Shown: positions 5,180 through 29,186 of the stretch, piece by piece
Position numbering within the stretch: position 1 is the stretch's first letter
Layout: each line of letters opens with the position of its first letter
IMG/VR virus record: IMGVR_UViG_2718217795_000001
Span: 1-30,259 of that record
Length of the DNA stretch: 30,259 nt
From: a virus
Lineage: Duplodnaviria; Heunggongvirae; Uroviricota; Caudoviricetes
Reading direction: 5' to 3' (one strand)
Made by a program: the position numbers and the translations under genes
The notes under the pieces: generated by a model
What the model saw: the letters and a program-made list of their open reading frames with translations, nothing else
Database searches by the model: none
What the model was told of the DNA's origin: nothing

Positions 5180-6358
5180 TTAGCTGTTGACCGATTCGGC
5201 CAGATTCACCAGATATTTATCGGTGATACGCTGGCGCAGGGTCAGGCTTTCCAGTGGTGGAACCGGCGTATAGTCGTAGTCGATATACAGTTTCCCGGCC
5301 TTGAGGGTTTCCTTATCGTTCGATTCCTCGTCGAACCAGCATTCACCGTCCACGATGTAGCCATTTGATTTCAGCTCGCGGAATTTGGCGTTAATACCGT
5401 CGACAATGTCACGGATAAGCGATGCGGTGATGGGCTTGTCGACCGCCCACATGTGCGCCTCGGCCATTGTGTCGGCCAGCACCTGAGCGGTGCGGGTGTA
5501 GTTCTCAAACAGGAAAAGCGGGTCATCAGAACAGGTGCGGTTACCCCAGAAGCGGAAACCATCTTTGCGCACCAGCGTCGTCACCCCGGCCTCGTTGAGC
5601 AGGTCAGCATCGGTACCGGATGCCTGCAAATCCCAAAACACTGACGCACTGATGCCGGTAACACCCTGCACGCCGACGTTAGACAGGGTTTTGTGCCAGC
5701 CGACGGTCTGGTCGATATAGGCACGCAGGCCGAGTGCGCGCGCGGTGGCGTAGGCTGTTGCGGTGGCGTTCGCGGTGGTGTCCCATGCGAGGAAATCAGG
5801 CCAGATAAGCATCAGTTCGCGCTGGCTGAAATTCTCGCGATAGGCCATCGCCTCGGAAATAGTCTTACAGCCCCATGCACTGACATAGCCAAAGGCGCGC
5901 AGGCTGATACAGACCGACGCAAGTGCGACTGCGACCTCTTTGGTATCGAGCCCCGGCACGCCGAGAATGCGCGGCTTAACGCCGGTGACCGCTTCGGCAG
6001 TCAACAGCGCCTTGATACCGGTGTATTTACCGTTCTCATCCGTGCCGCCGATGATATTGGAAATGGTCTGCGCTTCCGCGTCTTCTCCGGTACCTTCGGC
6101 AACACGCACGACAACGGTGACGGGCTTTGACTGGTCGGCGATGGCCTGCAGGGAGGCAGACAGCGTGCCTTTTTTACCGGCTTTCGCAATGGCGCTCTGC
6201 ACATTGGTAATCAGTACCGGCTCATTGAGGGGAAATGTCGCGGCATCCGCATCGCTGGCCGTACAAACCATGCCGACAATTGCGGTTGCAACAGTGGAAA
6301 TGACGCGGGTGCCGTCGTTAATTTCGAGCACCTGCACGCCGTGGTGAAAATCACTCAT
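5180..6358 (-). CDS. FI: Contractile tail sheath protein FI, 392 aa
   Basis: P2 FI-like sequence and size; ATG at 6356-6358 with GGAG RBS. Confidence 0.92.
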   Translation of the reverse strand: MSDFHHGVQVLEINDGTRVISTVATAIVGMVCTASDADAATFPLNEPVLITNVQSAIAKAGKKGTLSASLQAIADQSKPVTVVVRVAEGTGEDAEAQTISNIIGGTDENGKYTGIKALLTAEAVTGVKPRILGVPGLDTKEVAVALASVCISLRAFGYVSAWGCKTISEAMAYRENFSQRELMLIWPDFLAWDTTANATATAYATARALGLRAYIDQTVGWHKTLSNVGVQGVTGISASVFWDLQASGTDADLLNEAGVTTLVRKDGFRFWGNRTCSDDPLFLFENYTRTAQVLADTMAEAHMWAVDKPITASLIRDIVDGINAKFRELKSNGYIVDGECWFDEESNDKETLKAGKLYIDYDYTPVPPLESLTLRQRITDKYLVNLAESVNS

Positions 6359-6454
6359 CCGGTTAACTCCGTGGTTAGTGGGCGAGTGTTATTGTCCTGG
6401 CTGGTCTGGTGAGGGGCTATTTGTCGGCGATGGGTAGCGGATGGCACATAAATA

Positions 6455-6483
6455 AATCATAAAAAAGACGGGCATCAGCCCGC
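6455..6483 (-). terminator. Rho-independent terminator after gene G
   Basis: On the minus strand: hairpin CGGGC-TGAT-GCCCG followed by TCTTTTTTAT, directly 3' of the G stop codon. Confidence 0.55.
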
Positions 6484-6489
6484 CCTGCA

Positions 6490-7086
6490 TTATTCCGGTT
6501 TAACCGGCCACTCGATATCCGGTGCCGTGGAAATGTCGACCGCGTTCAGTGCCTGAATGTATTTCATCCACGCAATCAGGCTGGCCTTGTCATCATCACT
6601 GATGATGCCGAGCTGCAGCTCGGTTTGCCACAGGCTGATTACGCTTTGCGCTTCAGTCAGCAATGCGGATTTTTGCTGCTTCGCCTCCAGTACCTGACCG
6701 CTTTTCTGTGCGGTCTCATCCGTAACCCATTCGCTACCACTCCATCTGTCATAAGGTGTCAGTGGCTTGATGGTGGTCACGTTGTCTGGATAGTCACCAA
6801 GCTCGGTAATCTCGACAGGTTGACTGGTTTCAGTGTCATACACCGTTTCGCCCCGGTGGTCTGTTACATATCGCCACCCGTCAAGGGTGGCTGTACGGCA
6901 AACGGCAAATCCCGCCTTTTCATCGACTGGCACATCGGTACAGGAGTTGGCAGGGATACCGACACCAACGGCAAGAAATTCCACGGATGCAGATAAATAT
7001 TCGCGCGTTTTACCATCAAAGTTATAGACGGTCATATCACCGGCTTTTATAGCAATACCACTTTTGTTTAGTGTTGCTTTTGCCAT
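6490..7086 (-). CDS. G: Tail fibre assembly chaperone G, 198 aa
   Basis: Immediately downstream of tail fibre gene H with TAATG overlap; sequence resembles P2-type tail fibre assembly proteins. Confidence 0.8.
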   Translation of the reverse strand: MAKATLNKSGIAIKAGDMTVYNFDGKTREYLSASVEFLAVGVGIPANSCTDVPVDEKAGFAVCRTATLDGWRYVTDHRGETVYDTETSQPVEITELGDYPDNVTTIKPLTPYDRWSGSEWVTDETAQKSGQVLEAKQQKSALLTEAQSVISLWQTELQLGIISDDDKASLIAWMKYIQALNAVDISTAPDIEWPVKPE

Positions 7087-8132
7087 TATGCAGCCCTCAC
7101 TATGTAGTTAAATGCTATGTTGCGCGGGCGGGTTTCAGTGCCAATATTCGCTGCATTGTCAGAAGCAACCCCACGAGTGCCGATAGCTCTTACTGCTGAA
7201 GGTAGGCTTTGAGGCTCCCGGTCAGTATAGGCAATCCCCCCATCCCCTCCAGTTGCTAGCGGAGCATAACTCCCGGCCTGACCAATAGTTGACGATGTTG
7301 TATTTGAACCTGTCCAGACCTGCTGGTTATGTGAGTGGTCTCTGAGTGAATGGCCTTGAGATGAAAGCAGCGCACGCCCGTTGTCGATACCACGACTATC
7401 ATCCCATCCACGGATAAACTCACCGCGTAAATCAGGCAGATTCCCCGACGGAAATACTGCGGCGAGCCCCGGATATTTCACCTTATCAAATACCGCACCA
7501 TTACATTTCAGCCAGCCTGTCGGCGGCGTCGCTGACGGATAAGGGAGCGGCACGCCGACCGGGGTATATTTCGCAATGTCAGTTATTTTCAGGTATTGCG
7601 GATGCGGGTCAGCATCTGCAAGGTGTGCGGCCAGCAGACTATCAGCATAGGATTTCACCTCGATAACTTTGTCGTCGACATACTGGCGCGTTGCCAGCAC
7701 GACTGACGGGTCGATTTTCAGGGTGATAGCCGACGTGCTCGACACAATCAGAATCATGCGAATGGTCTGCGTGCGACCGCTTCCCTCCTGCAGTTGCGGT
7801 TTGTAGGTCTCCGGGCAGTTCGCCACGGCAATCAGAATGCCGTCATCGTCATAAAGGCCAATCTCGCGGATCCAGAAACCACCTTCATTCTCGGGAATAA
7901 TCTGTTCCGCGATAATCTGACTGGTATTGGCCGGGTCAACGGTCAGCAGGTTCAGCGGCGCGATGCGTTTCTGGTTAATGAGCTTCGTCTGCGCCGGGTC
8001 AGGGGTCGGCAACGTACCATTCGCATCACCGACGGCCATCTGCGTCAGGTTGAGTTTGGTACCGAGTGCCGCCGCGTTCGCCAGCCGCGCCGCGCCCTGA
8101 TTGGTCAGAATGGCAAAATATTTTGCGGTCAT
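7086..8132 (-). CDS. H: Tail fibre protein H, short variant, 348 aa
   Basis: N-terminal ~170 aa resemble the conserved baseplate-attachment region of P2 gpH; C-terminal part differs and the protein is about half the P2 length. Confidence 0.8.
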   Translation of the reverse strand: MTAKYFAILTNQGAARLANAAALGTKLNLTQMAVGDANGTLPTPDPAQTKLINQKRIAPLNLLTVDPANTSQIIAEQIIPENEGGFWIREIGLYDDDGILIAVANCPETYKPQLQEGSGRTQTIRMILIVSSTSAITLKIDPSVVLATRQYVDDKVIEVKSYADSLLAAHLADADPHPQYLKITDIAKYTPVGVPLPYPSATPPTGWLKCNGAVFDKVKYPGLAAVFPSGNLPDLRGEFIRGWDDSRGIDNGRALLSSQGHSLRDHSHNQQVWTGSNTTSSTIGQAGSYAPLATGGDGGIAYTDREPQSLPSAVRAIGTRGVASDNAANIGTETRPRNIAFNYIVRAA

Positions 8133-8737
8133 GCGTTCACTCTCAGATTATCAATCAAATGGATGGCCGAGGCCGGGTAATATTCACCGCCGACGACAAT
8201 CTCCTCGGGGGTGTAGGGGTAAACAGTCAGCGCGTCGCCGTGATAGCATCCCGCGCCGACATACAGTTCGCCGGTCGAGCTCAGACTGATAGCCAGCCCG
8301 GTCAGGTGGCGACTTGCCGGTTTGGCGTCTTCAATCAGTCGCTCAAGCTCCTGATACATTTCGTCAGTGATGCCGCTGTCGAGGACGCCAACAACGAGGC
8401 GGAATGTGCCTGGCTCCTCGTTGAGCTGCCACCACTCGCGCACCTCAATCAGAAAGCCGAGCGGCTCGACGACCCGACGCAATGCGCTGATGGTGCCTTT
8501 GTGCTGATGGACGAAAAACGAGGACGCGCAGACGCTGCGCTTTGTCGCCTCCGGCCATTTCTCATCCCACCTGTCGACCGACAGCGCCCACGCCAGATAC
8601 GGCAGCAGCTTTACCGGGCAGGTGCGCCAGTTCCACAGGGTGCGCAGCGGTACCGGCACGCGCTGAATCTCAGAGAGTGCAGCAGCGGCGGCAACTTCCA
8701 GCGGCGACGAGCCAACGGGTAACAGCCTGTCACTCAT
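8129..8737 (-). CDS. I: Baseplate protein I, 202 aa
   Basis: P2 gpI-like sequence, ATGA overlap with H, conserved order J-I-H. Confidence 0.85.
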   Translation of the reverse strand: MSDRLLPVGSSPLEVAAAAALSEIQRVPVPLRTLWNWRTCPVKLLPYLAWALSVDRWDEKWPEATKRSVCASSFFVHQHKGTISALRRVVEPLGFLIEVREWWQLNEEPGTFRLVVGVLDSGITDEMYQELERLIEDAKPASRHLTGLAISLSSTGELYVGAGCYHGDALTVYPYTPEEIVVGGEYYPASAIHLIDNLRVNA

Positions 8738-9638
8738 CCGAGCCCCCGATAGTTATCTGGTACTCGGTGCAGTTCGACGCCTGCGACTTACTCAGCACAA
8801 TATCGGTCTGAGGTGATGCCAGCTCGACACGCTGCACCCCCTCAACATGCAGCGCCGCGTAAATGGCCGACAGACGGATATCACGCCCGAGGCGGTGCTG
8901 CGCGCTGATGTAGCTCTGCAGCTTCTGCTCTGATGCCTGCCTGATGGGTTCAGATTCGGGGCCGGGGTAAACGTAGAGCGTCGCGTCAATCTGGTACGGC
9001 ACAATCTCGGCTGACTGGACGGTAACCCGGTCGGCCACCGGGCGCACATCTTCGGCATTCAGCGCTTTATCAACAATCGCCAGTAGTTCAGGACTAGCAG
9101 TGCCGTCACCCTCGCGCGATAGCACGGTAATCGTCACGCAGGCTGGCGACGGACTTGCGACCGAGACGTCAGCGACCCGCCCGTCGGCGCTGCGACCGTG
9201 ATACTCATATGCCCCGACCGGACCCGCCGCGCTCAATCCCTCAAACGCCTGTTGCGTGCGCAGTCGCAGGTCAGTATCGGATTCCATAACGGCAGGTGTC
9301 GGCGGAATGGTGGTGTCATCCGCCGGGGTGATGGTCAGGCGCTCGGTATTGTTGTTCCCGGCCACGACGTCGAGGTCGTTACCGGCGGAGTAGGCCAGCG
9401 TCACCGCCTGTGCGGCTTCGTTCACCCGCTGACGCCAGATAACTTCACGGTAGGCGTTTTCCTGCAGCAGCTTAACAATCGGCTCTGACTCAAGCGCGAG
9501 CGTCCGGGCAATGGACTCCTGCTGGTCTTCGGGATAGAGCGAAATCAGCGTCGCAATGCGTTCCGCAAGGATGGTTTCATAGTCCAGTTCCTCAACCACG
9601 TCGGGAACGGGTAACTGACTCAGGTCAACGGTTGCCAT
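8730..9638 (-). CDS. J: Baseplate wedge protein J, 302 aa
   Basis: Size matches P2 gpJ (302 aa); sequence and order W-J-I. Confidence 0.9.
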   Translation of the reverse strand: MATVDLSQLPVPDVVEELDYETILAERIATLISLYPEDQQESIARTLALESEPIVKLLQENAYREVIWRQRVNEAAQAVTLAYSAGNDLDVVAGNNNTERLTITPADDTTIPPTPAVMESDTDLRLRTQQAFEGLSAAGPVGAYEYHGRSADGRVADVSVASPSPACVTITVLSREGDGTASPELLAIVDKALNAEDVRPVADRVTVQSAEIVPYQIDATLYVYPGPESEPIRQASEQKLQSYISAQHRLGRDIRLSAIYAALHVEGVQRVELASPQTDIVLSKSQASNCTEYQITIGGSDE

Positions 9639-16546: not shown

Positions 16547-18316
16547 ATGACCATCTCCACCGATACAACCTTGTTGCATGACCCGCGACGGCAGGCATCG
16601 CTGCTTTACTGGCAGGGCTTTTCCGTGCCACAGATTGCCGAAATGCTGCAGGTCAAGCGCCCGACCGTGCAGAGCTGGAAGCAGCGCGACGGCTGGGACG
16701 GTATCGCACCGATTTCCCGCGTCGAAAGCAGCCTTGAGGCGCGCCTGATTCAGCTCATCGCCAAGCCGCAAAAGTCAGGCGGCGACTTCAAAGAGATTGA
16801 CCTGCTCGGGCGGCAGATTGAGCGACTGGCGCGCGTTAACCGCTACAGCCAGACCGGCAACGAGGTCGACCTTAACCCCAATGTCGCCAACCGTAACAAG
16901 GGCGAGCGTAAGAAGCCGAAAAAGAACTTTTTCAGCGACGAGGCTATCGGGAAACTGGAGGAATTATTTTTCGACCAGTCTTTCGAATACCAGTTGCAGT
17001 GGTACCGCGCAGGACTGGCGCACCGTATTCGCGACATTCTCAAATCCCGCCAGATTGGCGCGACGTTCTATTTTTCCCGCGAGGCACTGCTGCGCGCACT
17101 CAAGACCGGCCATAACCAGATTTTTCTTTCAGCCAGTAAAACGCAGGCTTACGTGTTCCGTGAATACATCATCCAGTTTGCGCGACTGGTCGACGTTGAC
17201 CTGACCGGCGACCCGATTGTCATCGGCAACAACGGCGCAAAGCTGATTTTTCTCGGTACCAATTCCAACACGGCGCAGAGCCATAATGGCGACCTGTATG
17301 TCGACGAAATTTTCTGGATCCCGAACTTTCAGCGGCTGCGCAAAGTCGCCTCGGGCATGGCCTCGCAAAAACACCTGCGCTCAACCTATTTTTCAACGCC
17401 CTCCACGCTGGCGCATGGCGCTTACCCCTTCTGGTCTGGCGAACTGTTCAACAAGGGGCGCAGCAGTATCACCGAGCGTATCGATATCGATATCAGCCAT
17501 ACCGCGCTCGCCGGTGGTCAGCTCTGCGACGATGGACAGTGGCGGCAGATTGTCACCATTGAGGACGCGCTTGCCGGTGGCTGCACCCTGTTTGACCTTG
17601 ACCAGCTCAAACGCGAAAACAGCGCAGAAGACTTTAAAAACCTGTTTATGTGCGAATTTGTCGACGACAAAGCGTCGGTGTTCCCGTTCGAGGAGCTGCA
17701 ACGCTGCATGGTCGACGTGATGGAAGAATGGGAGGATTTTGCCCCGTTCGCCGATTATCCATTCGGATCCCGCCCGGTCTGGATTGGCTACGACCCGTCA
17801 CACACTGGCGACAGCGCCGGGTGCGTCGTACTCGCGCCGCCGGTGGTCTCGGGTGGCAAGTTCCGCATGCTGGAGCGCCATCAGTGGAAAGGCATGGACT
17901 TTGCCGCACAGGCAGAGGGGATCCGAAAGCTGACCGAGAAATATAACGTTGAATACATCGGCATTGACGCGACCGGCCTCGGCCTCGGCGTTTATCAGTT
18001 GGTGCGCTCATTCTTCCCGGCAGCGCGCGGTATCCGTTACACGCCTGAAATGAAAACCGCAATGGTGCTCAAGGCAAAAGACACCATTCGCCGCGGCTGT
18101 CTGGAATACGACGCCGGGGCAACCGACGTCACTCAGTCGTTTATGTCCATCCGCAAAACCATGACCAGCAGCGGGCGCAGCGCCACCTATGAGGCCAGCC
18201 GCACCGAGGAAGCCAGTCACGCCGATATCGCATGGGCGACCATGCACGCCCTGTTAAACGAACCGCTTTCTGCCGGTAGCGGCATGCAGCCTAAATCTAT
18301 TCTGGAGTTCAACTAA
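16547..18316 (+). CDS. P: Terminase ATPase (large) subunit P, 589 aa
   Basis: P2 gpP-like sequence and size; ATG with GGCGAGG RBS; TAATG overlap with Q. Confidence 0.92.
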   Translation: MTISTDTTLLHDPRRQASLLYWQGFSVPQIAEMLQVKRPTVQSWKQRDGWDGIAPISRVESSLEARLIQLIAKPQKSGGDFKEIDLLGRQIERLARVNRYSQTGNEVDLNPNVANRNKGERKKPKKNFFSDEAIGKLEELFFDQSFEYQLQWYRAGLAHRIRDILKSRQIGATFYFSREALLRALKTGHNQIFLSASKTQAYVFREYIIQFARLVDVDLTGDPIVIGNNGAKLIFLGTNSNTAQSHNGDLYVDEIFWIPNFQRLRKVASGMASQKHLRSTYFSTPSTLAHGAYPFWSGELFNKGRSSITERIDIDISHTALAGGQLCDDGQWRQIVTIEDALAGGCTLFDLDQLKRENSAEDFKNLFMCEFVDDKASVFPFEELQRCMVDVMEEWEDFAPFADYPFGSRPVWIGYDPSHTGDSAGCVVLAPPVVSGGKFRMLERHQWKGMDFAAQAEGIRKLTEKYNVEYIGIDATGLGLGVYQLVRSFFPAARGIRYTPEMKTAMVLKAKDTIRRGCLEYDAGATDVTQSFMSIRKTMTSSGRSATYEASRTEEASHADIAWATMHALLNEPLSAGSGMQPKSILEFN

Positions 18317-19362
18317 TGGGTAAGCAAAAATCCCGCAAAGCCGCTGCGCAGAAGGCCAGCAAGCCACAACACCTGACCGCCAGCGCACCGCCAAAAACAA
18401 CAGCTTTCACCTTCGGCGAGCCGGTGCCGGTACTCGATAAGCGCGACATTCTGGATTACGTCGAGTGCATCAGTAACGGCAAGTGGTACGAGCCGCCGGT
18501 CAGCTTCTCCGGGCTGGCAAAGAGCCTGCGCTCTGCTGTACATCACAGCTCACCGATTTACGTTAAGCGCAACGTGCTCGCGAGCACCTACATTCCGCAC
18601 CCGTTGCTGTCCCGTCAGGATTTCAGCCGCTTTGCGCTCGACTATCTGGTATTCGGCAATGCCTTTCTTGAGCAGCGCCACAGCGTCACCGGCCAGTTAA
18701 TCAAGCTGCTGGCCTCACCGGCCAAATACACCCGGCGCGGGGTCGACGATTCTATATTCTGGTTTGTGGAAAACTTCACTCTACCGCATGAGTTCGCGCC
18801 TGATACGGTGTTTCACCTGCTGGAGCCCGATATTAATCAGGAGATTTACGGCCTGCCCGAATATCTCAGCGCGCTTAATTCTGCCTGGCTGAATGAATCC
18901 GCGACGCTGTTCCGCCGCAAGTATTACCAGAACGGCGCGCACGCGGGTTACATCATGTATGTGACCGACCCGGCGCAGAGCGCGACCGACGTCGAATCGC
19001 TGCGCGAGGCGATGCGAAACTCGAAAGGGCTCGGCAACTTTAAGAACCTGTTTTTCTACGCTCCCGGCGGAAAACCGGACGGCATCAAAATCGTGCCACT
19101 GAGTGAGGTCGCCACAAAGGATGACTTTTTCAACATCAAGAAAGCCAGCGCCGCCGACCTGATGGACGCGCACCGCGTACCGTTCCAGCTCATGGGCGGC
19201 AAGCCCGAGAATATCGGTTCGCTCGGTGACGTTGAGAAGGTGGCAAAAGTATTTGTGCGTAACGAGCTGTCACCCCTGCAGGACAGGTTCAGGGAGGTAA
19301 ACGACTGGCTCGGCATGGAGGTCATCAGGTTCAAAGAGTACACCCTCGACAACCCGGAATAA
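18316..19362 (+). CDS. Q: Portal protein Q, 348 aa
   Basis: P2 gpQ-like sequence and size; followed by terminator and cos. Confidence 0.92.
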   Translation: MGKQKSRKAAAQKASKPQHLTASAPPKTTAFTFGEPVPVLDKRDILDYVECISNGKWYEPPVSFSGLAKSLRSAVHHSSPIYVKRNVLASTYIPHPLLSRQDFSRFALDYLVFGNAFLEQRHSVTGQLIKLLASPAKYTRRGVDDSIFWFVENFTLPHEFAPDTVFHLLEPDINQEIYGLPEYLSALNSAWLNESATLFRRKYYQNGAHAGYIMYVTDPAQSATDVESLREAMRNSKGLGNFKNLFFYAPGGKPDGIKIVPLSEVATKDDFFNIKKASAADLMDAHRVPFQLMGGKPENIGSLGDVEKVAKVFVRNELSPLQDRFREVNDWLGMEVIRFKEYTLDNPE

Positions 19363-19371
19363 TCCCCCTCA

Positions 19372-19395
19372 AGCCGCCAGCATGGCGGCTTTTTC
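19372..19395 (+). terminator. Rho-independent terminator after Q
   Basis: Perfect 7-bp stem AGCCGCC / GGCGGCT with 5-nt loop followed by TTTTT, 10 nt after the Q stop. Confidence 0.65.
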
Positions 19396-19538
19396 ATACC
19401 CCGCCACCATCACGCCTCAGATGCGCCACACGCGCACCACCACACCCGACCACCAACGAACCGACAGCGACCACGACCGCGCCATCACGACGCGCTCAGA
19501 CGATAATTTTTATTATTACGCACCACCGCTGGCGCGCA

Positions 19539-19557
19539 ATGCTTTCCCCGCCACGCC
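19539..19557. other. cos site, 19-nt cohesive end of 186 type
   Basis: Plus strand ATGCTTTCCCCGCCACGCC is the reverse complement of GGCGTGGCGGGGAAAGCAT, the cohesive-end sequence I recall for phage 186 (P2 differs at 2 positions); lies adjacent to Q as expected. Confidence 0.7.
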
Positions 19558-19651
19558 TGCCCGCTTAACGGGTCGCTTTTAATGCAGGTGCATCAGGAGC
19601 CCCGAGCCGCGCCAGCGCTGGCGCTGGCTCACAAATTCTGGAATCAAAAAC

Positions 19652-19681
19652 GCATGCAATTTAATGCAAGATAATGCATTC
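19652..19681 (+). repeat. Three tandem ~10-bp repeats with core ATGCA(A/T)
   Basis: cgcATGCAAt / ttaATGCAAg / ataATGCATt, helically phased, ~110 bp upstream of the cassette start codon. Confidence 0.5.
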
Positions 19682-19730
19682 AAATTGAGTTTATGATACT
19701 GATCGGTCAGTCATGCCTTCATTCTTAGGT

Positions 19731-19760
19731 TTGATATGGCACAGGCTACCTTGTAACAAT
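19731..19760 (+). promoter_or_regulatory. Candidate sigma70 promoter of the AT-rich cassette
   Basis: TTGATA (19731-19736), ~18-nt spacer, TG-extended AACAAT (19752-19760); AAGGTG RBS 6 nt before the ATG at 19789. Confidence 0.35.
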
Positions 19761-19788
19761 TAGGGATTTTTCAAAAAGGTGACTACCC

Positions 19789-20847
19789 ATGGCAGGTGAA
19801 ACTCAAAATATTTCAGCAATGGCGGAAAAGATATCTTCCGATTTATTTAAGTGGTTCAAGTGGGAGCTTGTTGGGGTAACCAATGAAAACTTTCAGTGTT
19901 TGAAGTCTACGCAACATAAAACAAAGTCTGGAACACACCCGACTGATGTTGTTTTTTCCTATAAGGATCCATACTTAAATCGGACGATTTTTTTAAATAC
20001 AGATTTAAAAAGTTATGTAAAAGGGTCGATAACAGCAACCTCAATGCGAAACGCATTAGTCTCATTGGCTAACTCTATTGATTGCGCAGAAGGTAGCAAG
20101 GAATGGAAGGATAGATACTCTTATCAAAGTGGCTCTTCTGAGGTTAGAGGAATGCTCTTTGTATATAATCATGATGGTGAGTTTGACAGATCGTTCTATG
20201 ATGTGTTTTATCAGTCTTATAATGCAGAAACTGATAAAACAAAACGGGGTATTAACCTTGATAATATTCCTCTAAAACAAGGTCAGAAGATTCATATTAT
20301 TGAGCCGAGAACTATAAATTATTTGCAATCAATAATTACGGACTTGTCTCAACTGAGTCACAATCGAGAATTTCCTTTAGGTAAAAATTACCAGTTCTTT
20401 TACCCAGACCTATCACTTCATAAAGTTAGCGGGTCACCTGAAGAACACCCGGCAACAGTAGAGTTGTTAACGGGGCCTTTTTTGATAATTAAACACAACG
20501 ATGTTAAACATTGTGATGAAGAAACTTTAGAGTGGAAAACAACCTATAAGCATGGTTATGTTATTTATTACAATGGCGAGGGTAATAATGAATTAGAGTT
20601 TGTTTATATTCTTGATACGTTATCAAAATACCAACTCTTGGATGGAAATGAAAAGATAAGAATTAGAATTGTACATCCAAGCATTTATAAAGATGTTCGC
20701 AGTATTTTTATGCGTGCTAAGGAAACATACTGTAGAGAATGGGGTTTCGATGAACATAAAAAAACCATCATTGATGCCATTGATTTTCACCAAGTTGAAT
20801 TTACAAAACCTCACTTCAGTTCTGTTGAGATTGGTTGGGAGCGATAA
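19789..20847 (+). CDS. Cassette gene 1: hypothetical protein, 352 aa, possible PD-(D/E)xK nuclease fold in N-terminus
   Basis: ATG with RBS; ~35% GC; N-terminal pattern E26 ... PTD52-VVF ... IFLNTD72-L-K74 fits a restriction-endonuclease-like core; no Walker A/B. Confidence 0.6.
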   Translation: MAGETQNISAMAEKISSDLFKWFKWELVGVTNENFQCLKSTQHKTKSGTHPTDVVFSYKDPYLNRTIFLNTDLKSYVKGSITATSMRNALVSLANSIDCAEGSKEWKDRYSYQSGSSEVRGMLFVYNHDGEFDRSFYDVFYQSYNAETDKTKRGINLDNIPLKQGQKIHIIEPRTINYLQSIITDLSQLSHNREFPLGKNYQFFYPDLSLHKVSGSPEEHPATVELLTGPFLIIKHNDVKHCDEETLEWKTTYKHGYVIYYNGEGNNELEFVYILDTLSKYQLLDGNEKIRIRIVHPSIYKDVRSIFMRAKETYCREWGFDEHKKTIIDAIDFHQVEFTKPHFSSVEIGWER

Positions 20848-20849
20848 GT

Positions 20850-21974
20850 ATGAAAATCGGTTTGTATAGCGTTAATGACAAAGCTATGTTTGATGCTCTC
20901 AATCAAACAAAGGTGACTCATGAAGACATGAAAAGCCTTTTTTTCAAAAGAGGCACTATTATTTCTAAGGATACAAAACGGAAGACTTTAGCTTTGGATT
21001 TTTCGAAGAACTTCCACGGCTATTATGACTTTGAATATTTATCAGAAATTCTTGGATCTGTAGGGAGAAGAGAGAAAGTATCAATTAATATTGTCAACAG
21101 TGCAATTAGTTTAAGTGATATGGAAGTCACAATAAAATCTATATGTGAAGAATTACAAAAAGAGGGGGATGTAACAAATATCAATTACACCGAGAATGGA
21201 TTTGAGGTGTCAGTAAAATATGTCAAGCTGGATTTTAAAATGAGCGAGTTTCGGCAATCCTCATCTCGCGAGGCTAAAATACAAGTAGAGTTGAATGATG
21301 AGGGAGAGTATATTACGCGCTTCCCTCAGAATGCCAAGGCACATGAGTTTAATGAACTTTTGATTAAAAAAATAAAAGAAACTAATAATGATGAGCCTGT
21401 AAGTCTTGAAGAGATATCGCTTGAAACGGTCAAAGATTCAAATGAACGTAGTCGTTTCTTTAAAGAACTGATCGTTAGTATGCCAAATTACAAATGTGTC
21501 GATGTGTCAGATGTTTATGTCACCCATCCAGTATTAGAGGTTAAAAAACCATCTGAATCTGAAGATGATGAAGATGACTCGGATGAGGATGATGATGCTG
21601 TAATAGACACTGGGTATCATATTTCAAAGGCATCATTGAAAGGAAGGGGTGTCCTTGAATCACCAGAACTGGAAGAGTTATTGGGTAATGGGTTTTACAT
21701 TACAAAGATAATATGGAGTTCGGTAGTCGAAGGTTTTAAAGACTCCGATAAGTATGAATTCGAAGCCCAGTTTGTGGATCCGGATAAATGTAAGCTGTTT
21801 TCTTATCTCGTTCGTGGATGTTATAAATATAAAAAAGTAAATGTGTTTACTAATCGGCAAAATGTGGATAAGGAAAAAGAAAATGTGCTATTATTATCAA
21901 TAGAAAAAACGGCTCGAGAAATCTCTAATAGAATAATATCTTTAAATACTCTCGAGGTAGTCACTGAAAAATAA
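20850..21974 (+). CDS. Cassette gene 2: hypothetical protein, 374 aa, with poly-acidic linker
   Basis: Track start is a TTG at 20835 overlapping gene 1; ATG at 20850 follows GGGAG RBS and lies 2 nt after gene 1 stop. Run SESEDDEDDSDEDDD at nt 21552-21596. Confidence 0.6.
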   Translation: MKIGLYSVNDKAMFDALNQTKVTHEDMKSLFFKRGTIISKDTKRKTLALDFSKNFHGYYDFEYLSEILGSVGRREKVSINIVNSAISLSDMEVTIKSICEELQKEGDVTNINYTENGFEVSVKYVKLDFKMSEFRQSSSREAKIQVELNDEGEYITRFPQNAKAHEFNELLIKKIKETNNDEPVSLEEISLETVKDSNERSRFFKELIVSMPNYKCVDVSDVYVTHPVLEVKKPSESEDDEDDSDEDDDAVIDTGYHISKASLKGRGVLESPELEELLGNGFYITKIIWSSVVEGFKDSDKYEFEAQFVDPDKCKLFSYLVRGCYKYKKVNVFTNRQNVDKEKENVLLLSIEKTAREISNRIISLNTLEVVTEK

Positions 21975-21985
21975 AAGGAGTTGTT

Positions 21986-22657
21986 ATGAAAACAAAATGG
22001 TTTACTGCCAACTTCCCTGCCGGTCTCGATAGGTTATACCAGGCCATCATAAACACGCCTTTTGACAGTGACAAAGGTTGGGGGTTTAGTATTCTTTCAT
22101 ATGAAGATAAGTATATATCTTCAAAATATATTGAAAGGGTTGAGGTAAGCGAAGTAATCATAGACCCCTATGGTAATGAAACTGAGTTTAATCATTTCAA
22201 ATATGTGCAGTTTAACTTTTGGTTTTTTAAAGCTCAAGGCGGTAACTTCATTTTAATAATTGATTCTCCGCCTAGAAGTATCAAGGGTTTTATCTCCAAT
22301 GTGATTAAGGCAACTGAATCCGATTTTAATGTTTCTTATCTTGTGATTCAAATTGATGAGTTTATAAAATTTATCACGCCTCACTTCGAAAAGGTTCAGG
22401 TGCACAAGGCCAAATTAAAGGATTTGACTTTTAGTAAAAATACATCTGGCATTTTAGAACTTGAGTCTTCAAATGACGCGATAGATGAGATGAGAAATAT
22501 TTTTAAAAATGCAAAATTCACGATTGATAAAGTTAAATTGAGTGTTAAATCTAACACTGGCAATGAAACATTAGAAGTGAATTCCAATGGTTCTCTTAGC
22601 TTCTCAGAGGAGCTTTTTGATAAGATATTCTCTGCAGTTGAGCGTTTCACTTTCTAA
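21986..22657 (+). CDS. Cassette gene 3: hypothetical protein, 223 aa
   Basis: ATG 11 nt after gene 2 stop with AAGGAG RBS; AT-rich; no recognisable motif. Confidence 0.6.
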   Translation: MKTKWFTANFPAGLDRLYQAIINTPFDSDKGWGFSILSYEDKYISSKYIERVEVSEVIIDPYGNETEFNHFKYVQFNFWFFKAQGGNFILIIDSPPRSIKGFISNVIKATESDFNVSYLVIQIDEFIKFITPHFEKVQVHKAKLKDLTFSKNTSGILELESSNDAIDEMRNIFKNAKFTIDKVKLSVKSNTGNETLEVNSNGSLSFSEELFDKIFSAVERFTF

Positions 22658-22666
22658 GATAGAGTT

Positions 22667-22706
22667 GAAAAGCACTCTTAGTAAAATAAGGGTGCTTTTC
22701 ATTTTA
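22667..22706 (+). terminator. Rho-independent terminator after the cassette
   Basis: Stem AAAGCAC(tctta) / (taagg)GTGCTTT with loop, followed by TTTTCATTTT, 10 nt after gene 3 stop; near-palindromic so possibly bidirectional. Confidence 0.6.
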
Positions 22707-22847
22707 ACTTTAAAAGTTTTTCGAAATCCGAAAGTGTTCGCGAGATTTGTTACCTCGTATTCATTTTGATTAGCGAGTTTTTATCAAGGTCAATGCTCTT
22801 ATAGGTATCGAAACCTGAGCCCGCATGTAATACCCGGAGCTTAAATT

Positions 22848-23030
22848 CTATTCGGCTTTATAGAAAATATCCGGGTCATCCTCAGCACTTTCACTGTTCG
22901 CTAAATCAGCAATAAGAGTGAGTGCGAGCTTAAGGTCTGACGGTTTGCAATTTGCAATCAGAGACACCTCTGCAATGAATTGTACACAAGCCCACTTTTG
23001 CTGAGTTCGGCTGAAATGTTCGCCAACCAT
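22848..23030 (-). CDS. Small SOS-regulated ORF, candidate Tum-like antirepressor (possibly truncated), 60 aa
   Basis: ATG with GGGAGGG RBS, about 20 bp downstream of a near-consensus LexA box; occupies the position between gene A and cos where 186 carries tum. No sequence homology asserted. Confidence 0.4.
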   Translation of the reverse strand: MVGEHFSRTQQKWACVQFIAEVSLIANCKPSDLKLALTLIADLANSESAEDDPDIFYKAE

Positions 23031-23052
23031 GAAATCCCTCCCATAGAGTTTT

Positions 23053-23072
23053 TACTGTATGTTTGTACAGTA
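23053..23072 (-). promoter_or_regulatory. LexA operator (SOS box)
   Basis: TACTGTATGTTTGTACAGTA: perfect CTGT-N8-ACAG core, 17/20 match to the TACTGTATATATATACAGTA consensus, very similar to the E. coli recA box. Confidence 0.8.
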
Positions 23073-23143
23073 TCACGTATTGGCAAAAGATGGGAAGAGG
23101 AAAAAAACGTTAGAGTGATGTATGTGCATGATAAGGATGAAAA

Positions 23144-25372
23144 TTAACTATCAATTTTTGTTGCCGCTTCGGCTAAATCCGCAACGCGACGTAGAATCTT
23201 TCTGGCTTGAGACTGTTGTGACGGTGCTGCGGAAAATACCTCTCCTTTAGCTGTTCCACGCAACCATTTACCGTTAAAGCAACTCTTACCACCTGCCATA
23301 AGGTGCAGGGCTTCGCCCCGGCTGATGGTGATGCCGGTAGTGAGACGTATCTCGTCGATAGTTTTCGACAAAGCTGCATTTTGTTCGTCCGTTCCGTGGA
23401 TGAATTTTCGTCGTGTTGACGGTTTTTGCTTCCTCAGTCGGCTCGCCAGCTCTCGTCTTTCTGACCGACTCAGTGATTTTGTTAAATCCAATATCGGTGG
23501 ATCGCTTTCGCTTCCCGTACAGTTATTGACAGAACTCCGAGAGGGCGCAGGAGCGCCCTTAACGTCAACGGCCAAATCAACGGCACGCTTCGGCACAATT
23601 TTCCACTGCGTTAGCCGGGTTAAAATCGGGGTGCCAGCACCGACAGCGGAATCGTACACGCCACGGATGCAGACGGTTTCCTCACCATACTGGTTAAACT
23701 CGGCGCGCGGTTCATACAGCGTGCGCACCTGCAAATCATCGCGACGGACAAACGGGCCACCCTGCGCATTAACGTAACCAGCCCAGTCACCGGCGTCAGC
23801 GGCATCATGGACGGCGGCAAACTCAACGCTCAGACCGTGTGCGGTCTCGGTATCAGCGAGGCGACGCAACTCACGGTAGACCGTCACTGGCGCACCACCG
23901 ATAAACTGAAACTGACGGATGTGCCAGCGTGCCGCCCATGCCGAAACGGCGGGGGCTGTTTCTTTCAGCAGCTCACCGCTTTCGTCATCGGTTTCACCAT
24001 CAAGAGCATAGCCGTCGATATTTTTCGAAATGTATTTAGCTACATAGCCGGTAGCGCTCCCCTTTTCCGGGTCAATGGCCTCGGCATGAAAGCGAGCTTT
24101 TTTGGCTTTATCGCTTCTCAGTTCGTGGTGGTCTTCCTCCCACGCATAATCACGGATGATGAGGCGCACGCGCTCGACGTCTTCCGGCAACATGAACATA
24201 AGCATGTGCCAGTGCGGCGTCCCGTCGTGATGAGGCTCGGCAACACGTATGCCGAAAATGCGGATTTCTTCCCGGTGCAGCTTGGCGCGAATGCGCGCCC
24301 AAAGGCCGGTGAGATAGCTCTGCGTGTCCAACGGGCTGGCACCGTTCCATTTGCTGTTACGGTAGCCTGCTTTGGTGGTGGCGTGATATTTAGACGGTGC
24401 GGTCAGGGTGTAAAACTCACCGACATAACCGAGCTCATTGCAGATGTTTTCAAAACCACGGATACGGGTCATCAGCTCGCAGCGGCGTATCGCAGGGTTA
24501 GCGACCGAACCGTCGTATTTTTCAATCAGGCTGATGCGGTTGCCGTCTTCATCTTCGAGATCCAGCCCCTTGAGAAATTCACGCGTGCGGCGCTTCTGCT
24601 CACGCCAGTCGGTCACGCAGTTTTTACTCGCGTAGGCGTGTCGTTTTTTGCTGACATTTCCGACGGCAATTTGCAGATGTTCGCGCCATGCAGCCGCAAT
24701 GCGACGCAGACGACCACGCCACCACACATCGTTAAACATACGAGCGATAGCCGGGGCGATTTCATCTTCTCCGACATATTTTTTAGTCACCCGCTCCCAA
24801 TGCGGAGGGGTGACATTGAATTGCAGAGAAATAATACCGGCGCGCATGTACCAGGTGTACAGCGTTTTTAGCTCGCTAAATCCGGTGTCATCAATGTCAG
24901 CCAGTTCAGCACGAATGAAATTAGCAATATCAGCGGCCAGCAGGTCAATATCGGCGCGCGACATATCAGGGAGGCGGTTATATCTGGCGACTATGTTGAC
25001 CATGCGTGACGCCAGATATTGCATGAGCTGGGTATCAAAATGACCACCAAAAACAGTGGCCGATAAGTTGCTGTTGATACCCGCGCACTGATATTTTTTT
25101 GCGACCAGTTCAAGACGTGGTAATGCCTTTTTGCAGAAGCTGATTAAAAAGGCATTGGCTCGTTGACTGCCCTGATTTTGCTCCAGCACCGCAGCGGTGC
25201 GATAAACATCAAAGCGCACGCACTCGGGTTGGAGCGAAAGCACTTTTCTCGCATGCAGCAAAGCCGCGAACATACGGTCGCGGCGATACTGTTGGTCATA
25301 GGTAAGATATGGGCTGGCTATTGCTGACCGTGGAGCGTTCCACGGGTAAGCAAAGTTAACGCTTACCCGCAT
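23144..25372 (-). CDS. A: Replication initiation protein A (rolling-circle nickase), 742 aa
   Basis: P2/186 gpA-like sequence and size; last gene of the early lytic operon. Confidence 0.9.
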   Translation of the reverse strand: MRVSVNFAYPWNAPRSAIASPYLTYDQQYRRDRMFAALLHARKVLSLQPECVRFDVYRTAAVLEQNQGSQRANAFLISFCKKALPRLELVAKKYQCAGINSNLSATVFGGHFDTQLMQYLASRMVNIVARYNRLPDMSRADIDLLAADIANFIRAELADIDDTGFSELKTLYTWYMRAGIISLQFNVTPPHWERVTKKYVGEDEIAPAIARMFNDVWWRGRLRRIAAAWREHLQIAVGNVSKKRHAYASKNCVTDWREQKRRTREFLKGLDLEDEDGNRISLIEKYDGSVANPAIRRCELMTRIRGFENICNELGYVGEFYTLTAPSKYHATTKAGYRNSKWNGASPLDTQSYLTGLWARIRAKLHREEIRIFGIRVAEPHHDGTPHWHMLMFMLPEDVERVRLIIRDYAWEEDHHELRSDKAKKARFHAEAIDPEKGSATGYVAKYISKNIDGYALDGETDDESGELLKETAPAVSAWAARWHIRQFQFIGGAPVTVYRELRRLADTETAHGLSVEFAAVHDAADAGDWAGYVNAQGGPFVRRDDLQVRTLYEPRAEFNQYGEETVCIRGVYDSAVGAGTPILTRLTQWKIVPKRAVDLAVDVKGAPAPSRSSVNNCTGSESDPPILDLTKSLSRSERRELASRLRKQKPSTRRKFIHGTDEQNAALSKTIDEIRLTTGITISRGEALHLMAGGKSCFNGKWLRGTAKGEVFSAAPSQQSQARKILRRVADLAEAATKIDS

Positions 25373-27974: not shown

Positions 27975-28838
27975 ATGAGTTCTGAACTCGATGTTCAGTG
28001 GCGTATAGGTGCATCAAATGGCGTGTTAGAGCGCGTAATGTCAGCCTATGGCGTCAAGATGCAAAAGGATTTAGCTGACCTGTTGGGCATCGCTAAACAC
28101 AGCGTTAGTGGCTGGGTTCAACGCGATGCAATACCCGGCAATGTCATAGTTAGGTGTTGTCTTGATACTGGTGCTGATATCAATTGGCTTGTAAGTGGTG
28201 AGCTTGCAAATGCAAAACATGAGCGAGTCGGTTGCAAGCTAAAGGGCAAAGAACTCTATGACGAGATCATGACGAACGGGGGCAAAACCGTTTTGCGCAG
28301 AATTCTTGATGCTTATGGGTTTACGATGCAAAAAGAGCTTGGTGATTTATTGGGTATTTCTTCCGGCACTATAAGCACTTGGGTCAGGCGTGACTTTTTC
28401 CCGGGCGATGTGGTGGTGACCTGCGCACTTGACACTGGCGTTTCGTTGGAGTGGCTTTCTACAGGCAAAGGCAAGATGCGAGAAGGCAGGGAAAGTGAAT
28501 CTCTTAGCGCCTTAACAGTAAGAAAATGTCGCCTTGAAGCTGGCGAGCTTAAAGATATTGGGCGTTGGACTCCAGACCTTACAATGGTTCCTGAAAACAT
28601 TGATGAATTGATCTTTATTGATGGAGTAGGCGCATCTTGGCTTGTTGATTGTTCTAACTCAAAGATCGGTAATGGTCGTTGGCTTATTGGCATTGATGGT
28701 GCGCTCGATGTTTTTGATGTCATCAGGTTACCAGGTGGAAAGGTCAGGCTTTCAAATAAGTCTGCGGAGTTTGAATGTAATCTTTCAGACATCACACCAT
28801 CAGGTGCAGTGATTTTTACTTTGGAAAAGCATGTTTAA
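27975..28838 (+). CDS. cI: CI-type immunity repressor with tandemly duplicated N-terminal HTH domain, 287 aa
   Basis: Divergent from the early operon; residues 17-75 and 106-164 are ~50% identical copies of a 186-CI-like HTH module; distinct C-terminal domain. Confidence 0.7.
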   Translation: MSSELDVQWRIGASNGVLERVMSAYGVKMQKDLADLLGIAKHSVSGWVQRDAIPGNVIVRCCLDTGADINWLVSGELANAKHERVGCKLKGKELYDEIMTNGGKTVLRRILDAYGFTMQKELGDLLGISSGTISTWVRRDFFPGDVVVTCALDTGVSLEWLSTGKGKMREGRESESLSALTVRKCRLEAGELKDIGRWTPDLTMVPENIDELIFIDGVGASWLVDCSNSKIGNGRWLIGIDGALDVFDVIRLPGGKVRLSNKSAEFECNLSDITPSGAVIFTLEKHV

Positions 28839-28847
28839 GGAGCAGTT

Positions 28848-29186
28848 ATGAAAAAGTTATTATTTTTGATGGCCGGTATCGCGCTTTCTTCCTCAGCCTT
28901 AGCCGCTGAGAAATTTAAAGAGATTGATAGTAAATCTCTTGGTGATAAGTGGCCGCTTACCTTTGAGCATGCAAAAGTATCTTGTGTAAACAGTCACTAC
29001 GTTTTTGTTTATGACACTGACACGGATGAACGCTACCCCTTAAGCGGCATGGCTAAGAACGCCGTCAAGTCTGGAAAAATGGAAGGGCGAGATTTAAAAG
29101 AAGTTCTAAAAAAAGACCCTAACGATCCATTAGAACGAGCTGATATTGCTCCTGTTTTCAGTGAAGCCATAGCGCTTTGTGAATAA
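28848..29186 (+). CDS. Secreted small protein (moron) between cI and int, 112 aa
   Basis: AAGGAG RBS; N-terminal signal peptide MKKLLFLMAGIALSSSALA-AEK with AxA cleavage site; AT-richer than the backbone. Confidence 0.65.
   Translation: MKKLLFLMAGIALSSSALAAEKFKEIDSKSLGDKWPLTFEHAKVSCVNSHYVFVYDTDTDERYPLSGMAKNAVKSGKMEGRDLKEVLKKDPNDPLERADIAPVFSEAIALCE

Follow-up and report, generated by a model that had tools for sequence, protein, structure and literature searches.

Next to replication gene A, at the edge of the variable region of a P2-family prophage, a 60-aa open reading frame lies behind a LexA-like palindrome and faces an AT-rich gene cassette. The question that this locus raises is whether box and reading frame together form an SOS-inducible switch for prophage induction, and whether such a switch is still complete beside the cassette. 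The stretch of DNA analysed here, 30,259 nucleotides at its full length ("the window"), is as a whole a 186/PSP3-like prophage of the P2 family (Peduoviridae, Eganvirus-like), with the conventional map reversed. As set out below, the window very probably carries the module through which SOS induces prophages of the PSP3/186 type, in which the small gene, tumA, would act as an antirepressor under LexA control. The module is of a known kind, and the exact protein has already been catalogued.

The LexA box and promoter next to gene A

What fixes the "tum position" is gene A itself (23144-25372, minus strand; 742 aa; Pfam Phage_GPA, E = 5e-135; phrog_91, E = 1e-283), the upstream neighbor of tumA, whose start lies at 23030 on the same strand. 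From the stop codon of gene A one reads 71 nt, the LexA box, 10 nt, the ribosome-binding site GGGAGGG (23036-23042, minus strand; conserved in relatives), 5 nt and then the ATG. The same order, gene A followed by tumA (or, in 186, tum) on one strand, at the edge of the variable region near cos, is also found in PSP3, 186, Midge, RCIP0057 and 613R3. The first-pass annotation of this DNA had placed the reading frame in the same relative position as tum of phage 186 and about 20 bp behind the box, with a GGGAGGG ribosome-binding site. Both statements hold: tumA lies between gene A and the cos-proximal region, and 22 nt separate the box from the ATG. In complete genomes of E. coli the best match had 82% identity and comprised tumA and gene A only; the cassette was not found at that identity, and the window is accordingly not E. 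coli DNA.

Some features elsewhere on the map, and in the 186 record, may be mentioned here. The stretch of about 425 nt between portal gene Q and the cassette (19363-19788) is non-coding, C/A-rich in its first half (with runs of ACCACC and CGCC), and presumably holds cos. Between cI and int there is a 112-aa ORF of the DUF2511/YebY family (28848-29186, plus strand) with an N-terminal hydrophobic leader, which resembles a lysogeny-expressed moron and is conserved in related prophages. In the 186 record (U32222.1) the stretch 28815-28970 (positions 1655-1810 of our locus L002), which lies past the annotated stop of gene A, still encodes, with frames shifted, about 48 C-terminal residues of the gpA of the window (MAGGKSCFNG...ADLAE..); the old record may contain frameshifts that shorten A, or 186 A may truly end earlier.

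The box (23053-23072) has the sequence TACTGTATGTTTGTACAGTA and reads TACTGTACAAACATACAGTA on the minus (coding) strand. Its core, CTGT-N8-ACAG, has a single match in the window when both strands are scanned; on its own this core is weak, as shuffled sequences are expected to contain 0.35 matches and at least one was present in 28 of 100 shuffles. The full 20-mer differs from the E. coli consensus TACTGTATATATATACAGTA at three positions, all of them in the variable centre, and none of the 100 shuffles had a match within three mismatches of that consensus. Scored with an approximate position weight matrix made from 25 E. coli LexA sites, the site obtained 25.2-25.5 bits and would rank third among those 25 sites. 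No second LexA-like site was found in the window by this matrix, the next best 20-mer having only 9.5 bits. Since the window has a single such site, SOS input can presumably enter it only via tumA. The near-consensus box with a perfect core that had been claimed here is thus present and unique in the window, and scoring with a weight matrix, which had been proposed as a check, agrees within the limits of an approximate matrix.

The strongest argument that this is probably a real LexA box is comparative conservation. A single scan of species-representative genomes yielded 22 enterobacterial loci with tumA homologues, from Enterobacter, Citrobacter, Yokenella, Kluyvera, Escherichia, Pluralibacter, Kosakonia, Buttiauxella, Phytobacter, Dryocola, Winslowiella, Pantoea and Franconibacter, together with three loci of other or unresolved taxa. 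A CTGT-N8-ACAG box is located 37-42 nt before the tumA ATG in 20 of these 22 species-level loci, and in the other two (L025 and L026), where the match begins within the ORF, the box is found at the equivalent position. Across all 22 loci the CTGT and ACAG arms are invariant while the central 8 nt vary, i.e. the pattern that one would expect under selection for LexA binding. The box also aligns with the annotated LexA site of the 186 promoter p95.

One further contig deserves a description of its own. Locus L031 (GCA_048999755.1, ABYKDN010000004.1; positions 6001-9231) is a prophage remnant that has kept an identical copy of tumA together with the three-gene cassette. Neither gene A nor cI nor any structural gene was called in this 12-kb locus, whose chromosomal flanks include a BapA-like giant adhesin, and its LexA box has decayed to CTGT-N8-GCAG. 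Here the defence cassette seems to have outlasted the phage.

Between the end of gene A and the ATG of tumA, the DNA of the window aligns with that of PSP3, 613R3 and 186. In the 186 record this region carries p95, with -35 TTCACA, -10 TACTGT and a LexA site, annotated as responsible for SOS-dependent transcription of the SOS operon. By homology to that record, the window probably has a p95-like promoter at 23067-23096 on the minus strand, with -35 TTCCCA (23096-23091), an 18-nt spacer, TG at 23075-23074 and -10 TACTGT (23072-23067). On this strand the LexA box opens with the -10 hexamer, so that bound LexA would occlude the latter. A generic scan called no sigma-70 promoter in 22550-23250; the p95-like promoter was missed because its -10 matches at only three of six positions.

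TumA and the CI repressor

The gene tumA (22848-23030, minus strand) starts with ATG and encodes 60 aa, a predicted antirepressor corresponding to the N-terminal half of a split 186-type Tum. The protein is 90% identical to TumA of PSP3 over 60 of 60 residues (E = 2e-34), residues 1-47 being the same in both, and it matches phrog_1993 (E = 2.7e-30). In the GenBank annotation, PSP3 tumA is described as "similar to 5' end 186 tum; UV induction of prophage". We found 207 homologues, nearly all of 60-62 aa; the ORF of the window is full-length and not a fragment. It had been noted earlier that the ORF is much shorter than 186 Tum, and this stands (60 versus 146 aa); it is not a truncated gene, though, but corresponds to the N-terminal half of a tum that is split by nature.

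Codons 1-47, compared with eight relatives, gave dN/dS values of 0.00-0.07 wherever dS was unsaturated, i.e. strong purifying selection, indicating that tumA is a real gene whose protein product matters. The core ACVQFIAEVSLIANCKPSDLKLAL-LIADLA is nearly invariant. In the AlphaFold2 model (mean pLDDT 72.8) two helices, H8-25 and H30-48, form a hairpin, and the acidic tail is disordered. Neither Pfam, nor a sequence search of the PDB, nor a Foldseek comparison of the model with viral structures gave a significant match, and the last of these is uninformative since a two-helix hairpin is too small. At least 166 contigs, from Salmonella enterica as well as other Enterobacteriaceae, encode the exact protein, for which NCBI has "hypothetical protein" and UniRef "TumA". 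A whole-word literature search for the names TumA and TumB returned unrelated papers only.

Direct similarity to 186 Tum is weak when taken alone: the TumA profile aligned with residues 14-46 of 186 Tum by hhalign (E = 1.2e-4, probability 55%, 33% identity), and tblastn gave E = 0.012 over 31 aa. The profile match is nonetheless consistent with synteny, and synteny together with promoter homology argues for common descent of the two genes. The proposal that this is an SOS-inducible antirepressor module finds support in the homology to PSP3 TumA, in the alignment to 186 p95 and its LexA site, and in synteny, and may be considered the probable reading.

Judged by homology, the target of TumA is presumably CI, encoded by cI (27975-28838, plus strand; 287 aa; PF07022 twice, E = 6.7e-52; PF16452, E = 1.5e-17). 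Two Phage_CI_repr HTH domains (residues ~15-75 and 106-169) are followed by a Phage_CI_C domain, and no peptidase S24 domain was found in this protein by Pfam. The 186 CI has 192 aa and a single HTH domain. The tandem N-terminal duplication of the HTH domain is shared with PSP3 CI. The CI of the window is 84% identical to that of PSP3, and all seven sequenced phages that have tumA possess a CI 71-84% identical to it. That tumA is paired with a close homologue of this CI in every one of these phages suggests that TumA and CI form matched pairs.

tumB and the three-gene cassette

Homology to the nearest sequenced phages ends at the stop codon of tumA. In PSP3, SEN1, SI22, SW9, Midge, RCIP0057 and 613R3 this stop is followed, after 3-6 nt, by tumB, which encodes a DinI-like protein of 76-77 aa, and none of the seven sequenced phages with tumA in our collection is without it. 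A tblastn search of the entire window (word size 2, E up to 10) detected no DinI- or TumB-like sequence, and even its best hits were noise. Some 30 nt 3' of the tumA stop loosely resemble the start of tumB in an alignment; we rejected them as a tumB remnant, the resemblance being too weak and tblastn giving nothing there.

Among the 21 species-level loci that could be scored, tumB is present in seven and absent from 13; in the remaining one (L027) tumA is prematurely stopped, near a contig end. The 13 tumA-only loci retain the LexA box, and the genes next to tumA in such loci include type II restriction-modification genes and genes for NsnA/PD-T4-2-like proteins. By this survey tumA and its LexA box are evidently the conserved core, and tumB sits within the variable region. 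It had been supposed that the adjacent cassette may have truncated the operon. Indeed tumB is absent here, but tumA stands without it in 13 of 21 loci, and as this is common among related prophages it need not reflect a recent truncation by this particular cassette.

In Klebsiella phage ST437-OXA245phi4.1 (MK416011.1, 25578-28657) an Hp1 homologue (36% identity) is accompanied by an intact DinI-like (TumB-type) gene on the opposite strand, ~1.9 kb beyond the end of Hp1 and convergent with the related cassette, a layout that supports loss of tumB in the lineage of the window.

What follows tumA in the window is an AT-rich three-gene cassette (19789-22657, plus strand), for which PADLOC reported Hp1 (E = 3.4e-65), Hp2 (E = 6.1e-36) and Hp3 (E = 4.9e-8). 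The proteins, of 352, 379 and 223 aa, are encoded in the order Hp1, Hp2, Hp3 and in the same orientation. The Hp1-3 models of PADLOC we take to derive from the three-gene system of Rousset et al. 2022. With 33-37% G+C, versus 50-64% in the phage genes, the cassette is convergent with tumA, 190 nt apart from it, and occupies the place that tumB and further genes have in relatives. Its neighbors are portal gene Q (18316-19362) on one side and tumA/A on the other, which places it in the gpA-gpQ hotspot. Gene match and location together indicate that it is probably a 3HP-type defence system. The first of its proteins has a nuclease-like domain (PF26115, PDDEXK_GAPS4), seen as Pfam hits in related contigs. 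The interval between gpA and gpQ is a defence hotspot of P2-like prophages (Rousset et al. 2022, PMC9122126), and one of the systems validated from it, made up of three genes and devoid of recognisable domains, protects against P1 (PMC9122126).

The junction of tumA with 3HP is the same in all eight contexts listed for the exact TumA protein, and the exact arrangement of tumA and cassette occurs in many assemblies whose prophage gene sets are otherwise complete. Between the two convergent units lies a hairpin (22666-22701), separated from tumA by a 146-nt spacer, which is likely a bidirectional terminator, weaker for the tumA strand. The terminator call concerned the plus strand. The hairpin folds with -23.9 kcal/mol (z -5.9) on that strand and with -17.4 kcal/mol (z -4.8) on the minus strand, where the U run falls within the stem and no U tract follows. 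Rfam, searched with the whole window at gathering thresholds, gave no matches, and thus no known RNA element lies in the spacer between tumA and the cassette.

Induction model and comparison with known systems

The sequence elements, the homology to PSP3 tumA and to 186 p95, their conservation and the cognate type of CI are all read directly from the window and its relatives. LexA binding, SOS-dependent transcription and antirepressor activity, on the other hand, would be expected here by analogy with published work on 186, PSP3 and DuoHS. In an undamaged cell, host LexA would sit on 23053-23072, cover the -10 and keep tumA silent. Upon DNA damage, activated RecA would bring about self-cleavage of LexA and the p95-like promoter would fire. 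The 60-aa TumA would then be made and would bind or sequester CI, so that CI leaves its operators, the lytic promoter is derepressed and the operon that it drives (apl, cII ... A) may switch on. In the prophage of the window, which has no DinI-like tumB, the antirepressor half alone would remain to do so.

One may also consider an alternative explanation, namely that the locus is a crippled remnant, in which tumB and the SOS operon were lost to the cassette and TumA is insufficient or mis-tuned, such that the prophage responds to SOS poorly or not at all. This would fit the lack of any DinI-like sequence in the window and the presence of tumB directly downstream of tumA in every sequenced tumA phage of our collection, all the more so as the DinI-like short Tum products of 186 are annotated in its record as modulating SOS induction. 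We nevertheless consider it unlikely. The tumA ORF, its ribosome-binding site, its promoter and its LexA box are all intact, tumA is under strongly purifying selection, and the box is kept in 13 species-level loci that have tumA only. Furthermore, many assemblies in which the prophage gene set is otherwise complete share the arrangement of tumA and cassette, whereas in L031, a true remnant, the box has in contrast decayed, and published statements put the antirepressor activity in the upstream half of tum.

A different possibility is that the main effect of the SOS transcript comes from its convergent course into 3HP, where antisense RNA or polymerase collision would lower defence when the prophage turns lytic, besides or instead of antirepression. 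The two units do converge at a distance of 190 nt with a hairpin that lacks a U tract on the tumA strand, this geometry is fixed in all eight contexts listed for the exact tumA, and the homologous cassette of the Klebsiella phage is convergent with its DinI-like gene. However, the argument is a purely structural one, the hairpin also has a stable fold on the minus strand, the selection on tumA at the protein level implies that its product matters, and LexA-tumA modules adjoin many unrelated cargo genes in both orientations, all of which makes this explanation highly improbable. A combined version, in which the tumA transcript would pass the hairpin at 22666-22701 antisense into 3HP, so that SOS both lifts CI repression and shuts down defence, and in which loss of tumB would sharpen the SOS response, we also hold to be very unlikely. 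The palindrome could in principle be something other than a LexA site, i.e. a chance repeat or the operator of a phage protein, with an ORF unrelated to induction. The 16-nt core does turn up in 28 of 100 shuffles, and TumA lacks Pfam, PDB and structural matches, but the 20-mer is within three mismatches of the consensus in none of those shuffles, its matrix score ranks with strong E. coli sites, its position is conserved in 22 species with invariant arms and a variable centre, and it has a homologue in the LexA site annotated in 186, which leaves this scenario with a negligible probability.

If the window holds an SOS induction module of the PSP3/186 type, it becomes possible to label a 60-aa "hypothetical protein", present in hundreds of assemblies of Salmonella and other Enterobacteriaceae, as TumA, the antirepressor that LexA controls in PSP3-like prophages. 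Such a label predicts that these prophages, and the 3HP cassette that they carry, would be mobilised by mitomycin C, UV and other SOS inducers. The comparative addition is a modest one: on the border of the gpA-gpQ hotspot, tumB behaves like cargo that can be dispensed with, and tumA-only loci could be used to probe the contribution of the DinI-like partner to induction.

Small SOS-regulated proteins that inactivate repressors unable to cleave themselves have been described in other phages, such as GfoA and GftA of Gifsy-1 and Gifsy-2 and AntC of N15 (PMC3121763). These belong to lambdoid or N15-type phages and their sequences are unrelated to TumA. The Gifsy antirepressor also shares an operon with a dinI homologue, with dinI first, the reverse of the order of tumA and tumB (PMC3121763).

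More similar in layout is DuoHS, a prophage of E. coli HS, whose "tum" (ECHS_RS04495) is a 62-aa ORF directly after the replication endonuclease gene, with a CTGT-N8-ACAG box before it and a separate DinI-like gene after it. Either deletion of this gene or a lexA(Ind-) allele abolishes induction by mitomycin C (PMC12055606), which means that in the split arrangement the small upstream ORF is required for induction. The cognate cI gene of DuoHS has only 570 nt (~189 aa). We considered DuoHS Tum as a homologue of TumA and rejected this as unproven (E = 0.098), treating it as a positional and functional analogue. Since the similarity is not significant, DuoHS genetics offers an analogy for TumA rather than a direct test of it.

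With 186 (GenBank U32222) the window shares the genomic position of the gene, an alignable promoter and LexA box, and a CI of the Phage_CI_repr plus Phage_CI_C family. According to the account of Shearwin et al. 1998 given in PMC7708051, 186 Tum inhibits and sequesters CI and is expressed from the LexA-repressed p95. The regulatory logic would therefore be shared as well, in that what LexA holds back is an antirepressor, and the repressor itself is not cleaved by RecA. In 186, however, Tum is one protein of 146 aa whose C-terminal half is DinI-like, short modulators being made from internal starts, whereas TumA of the window comprises one half only, and 186 carries orf97 downstream of tum.

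A split tum is also known from PSP3 and Fels-2 (PMC3121763). Antirepressor activity has been placed in the upstream half of tum, and the evidence that PSP3 TumA is by itself the antirepressor is a personal communication, relayed second-hand in PMC3121763. PSP3 (GenBank AY135486; Eganvirus PsP3) divides the 186 gene into tumA, the antirepressor half, and tumB, the DinI-like half, and shares with the window the 60-aa TumA, its position after gene A, the LexA box and the promoter region. The two differ in what comes next, as well as in the acidic C-terminal tail of TumA: in PSP3 tumB (77 aa) follows tumA after 3 nt and is itself followed by gp37 and gp38, none of which the window contains, and in their stead the window has the hairpin and the convergent 3HP cassette.
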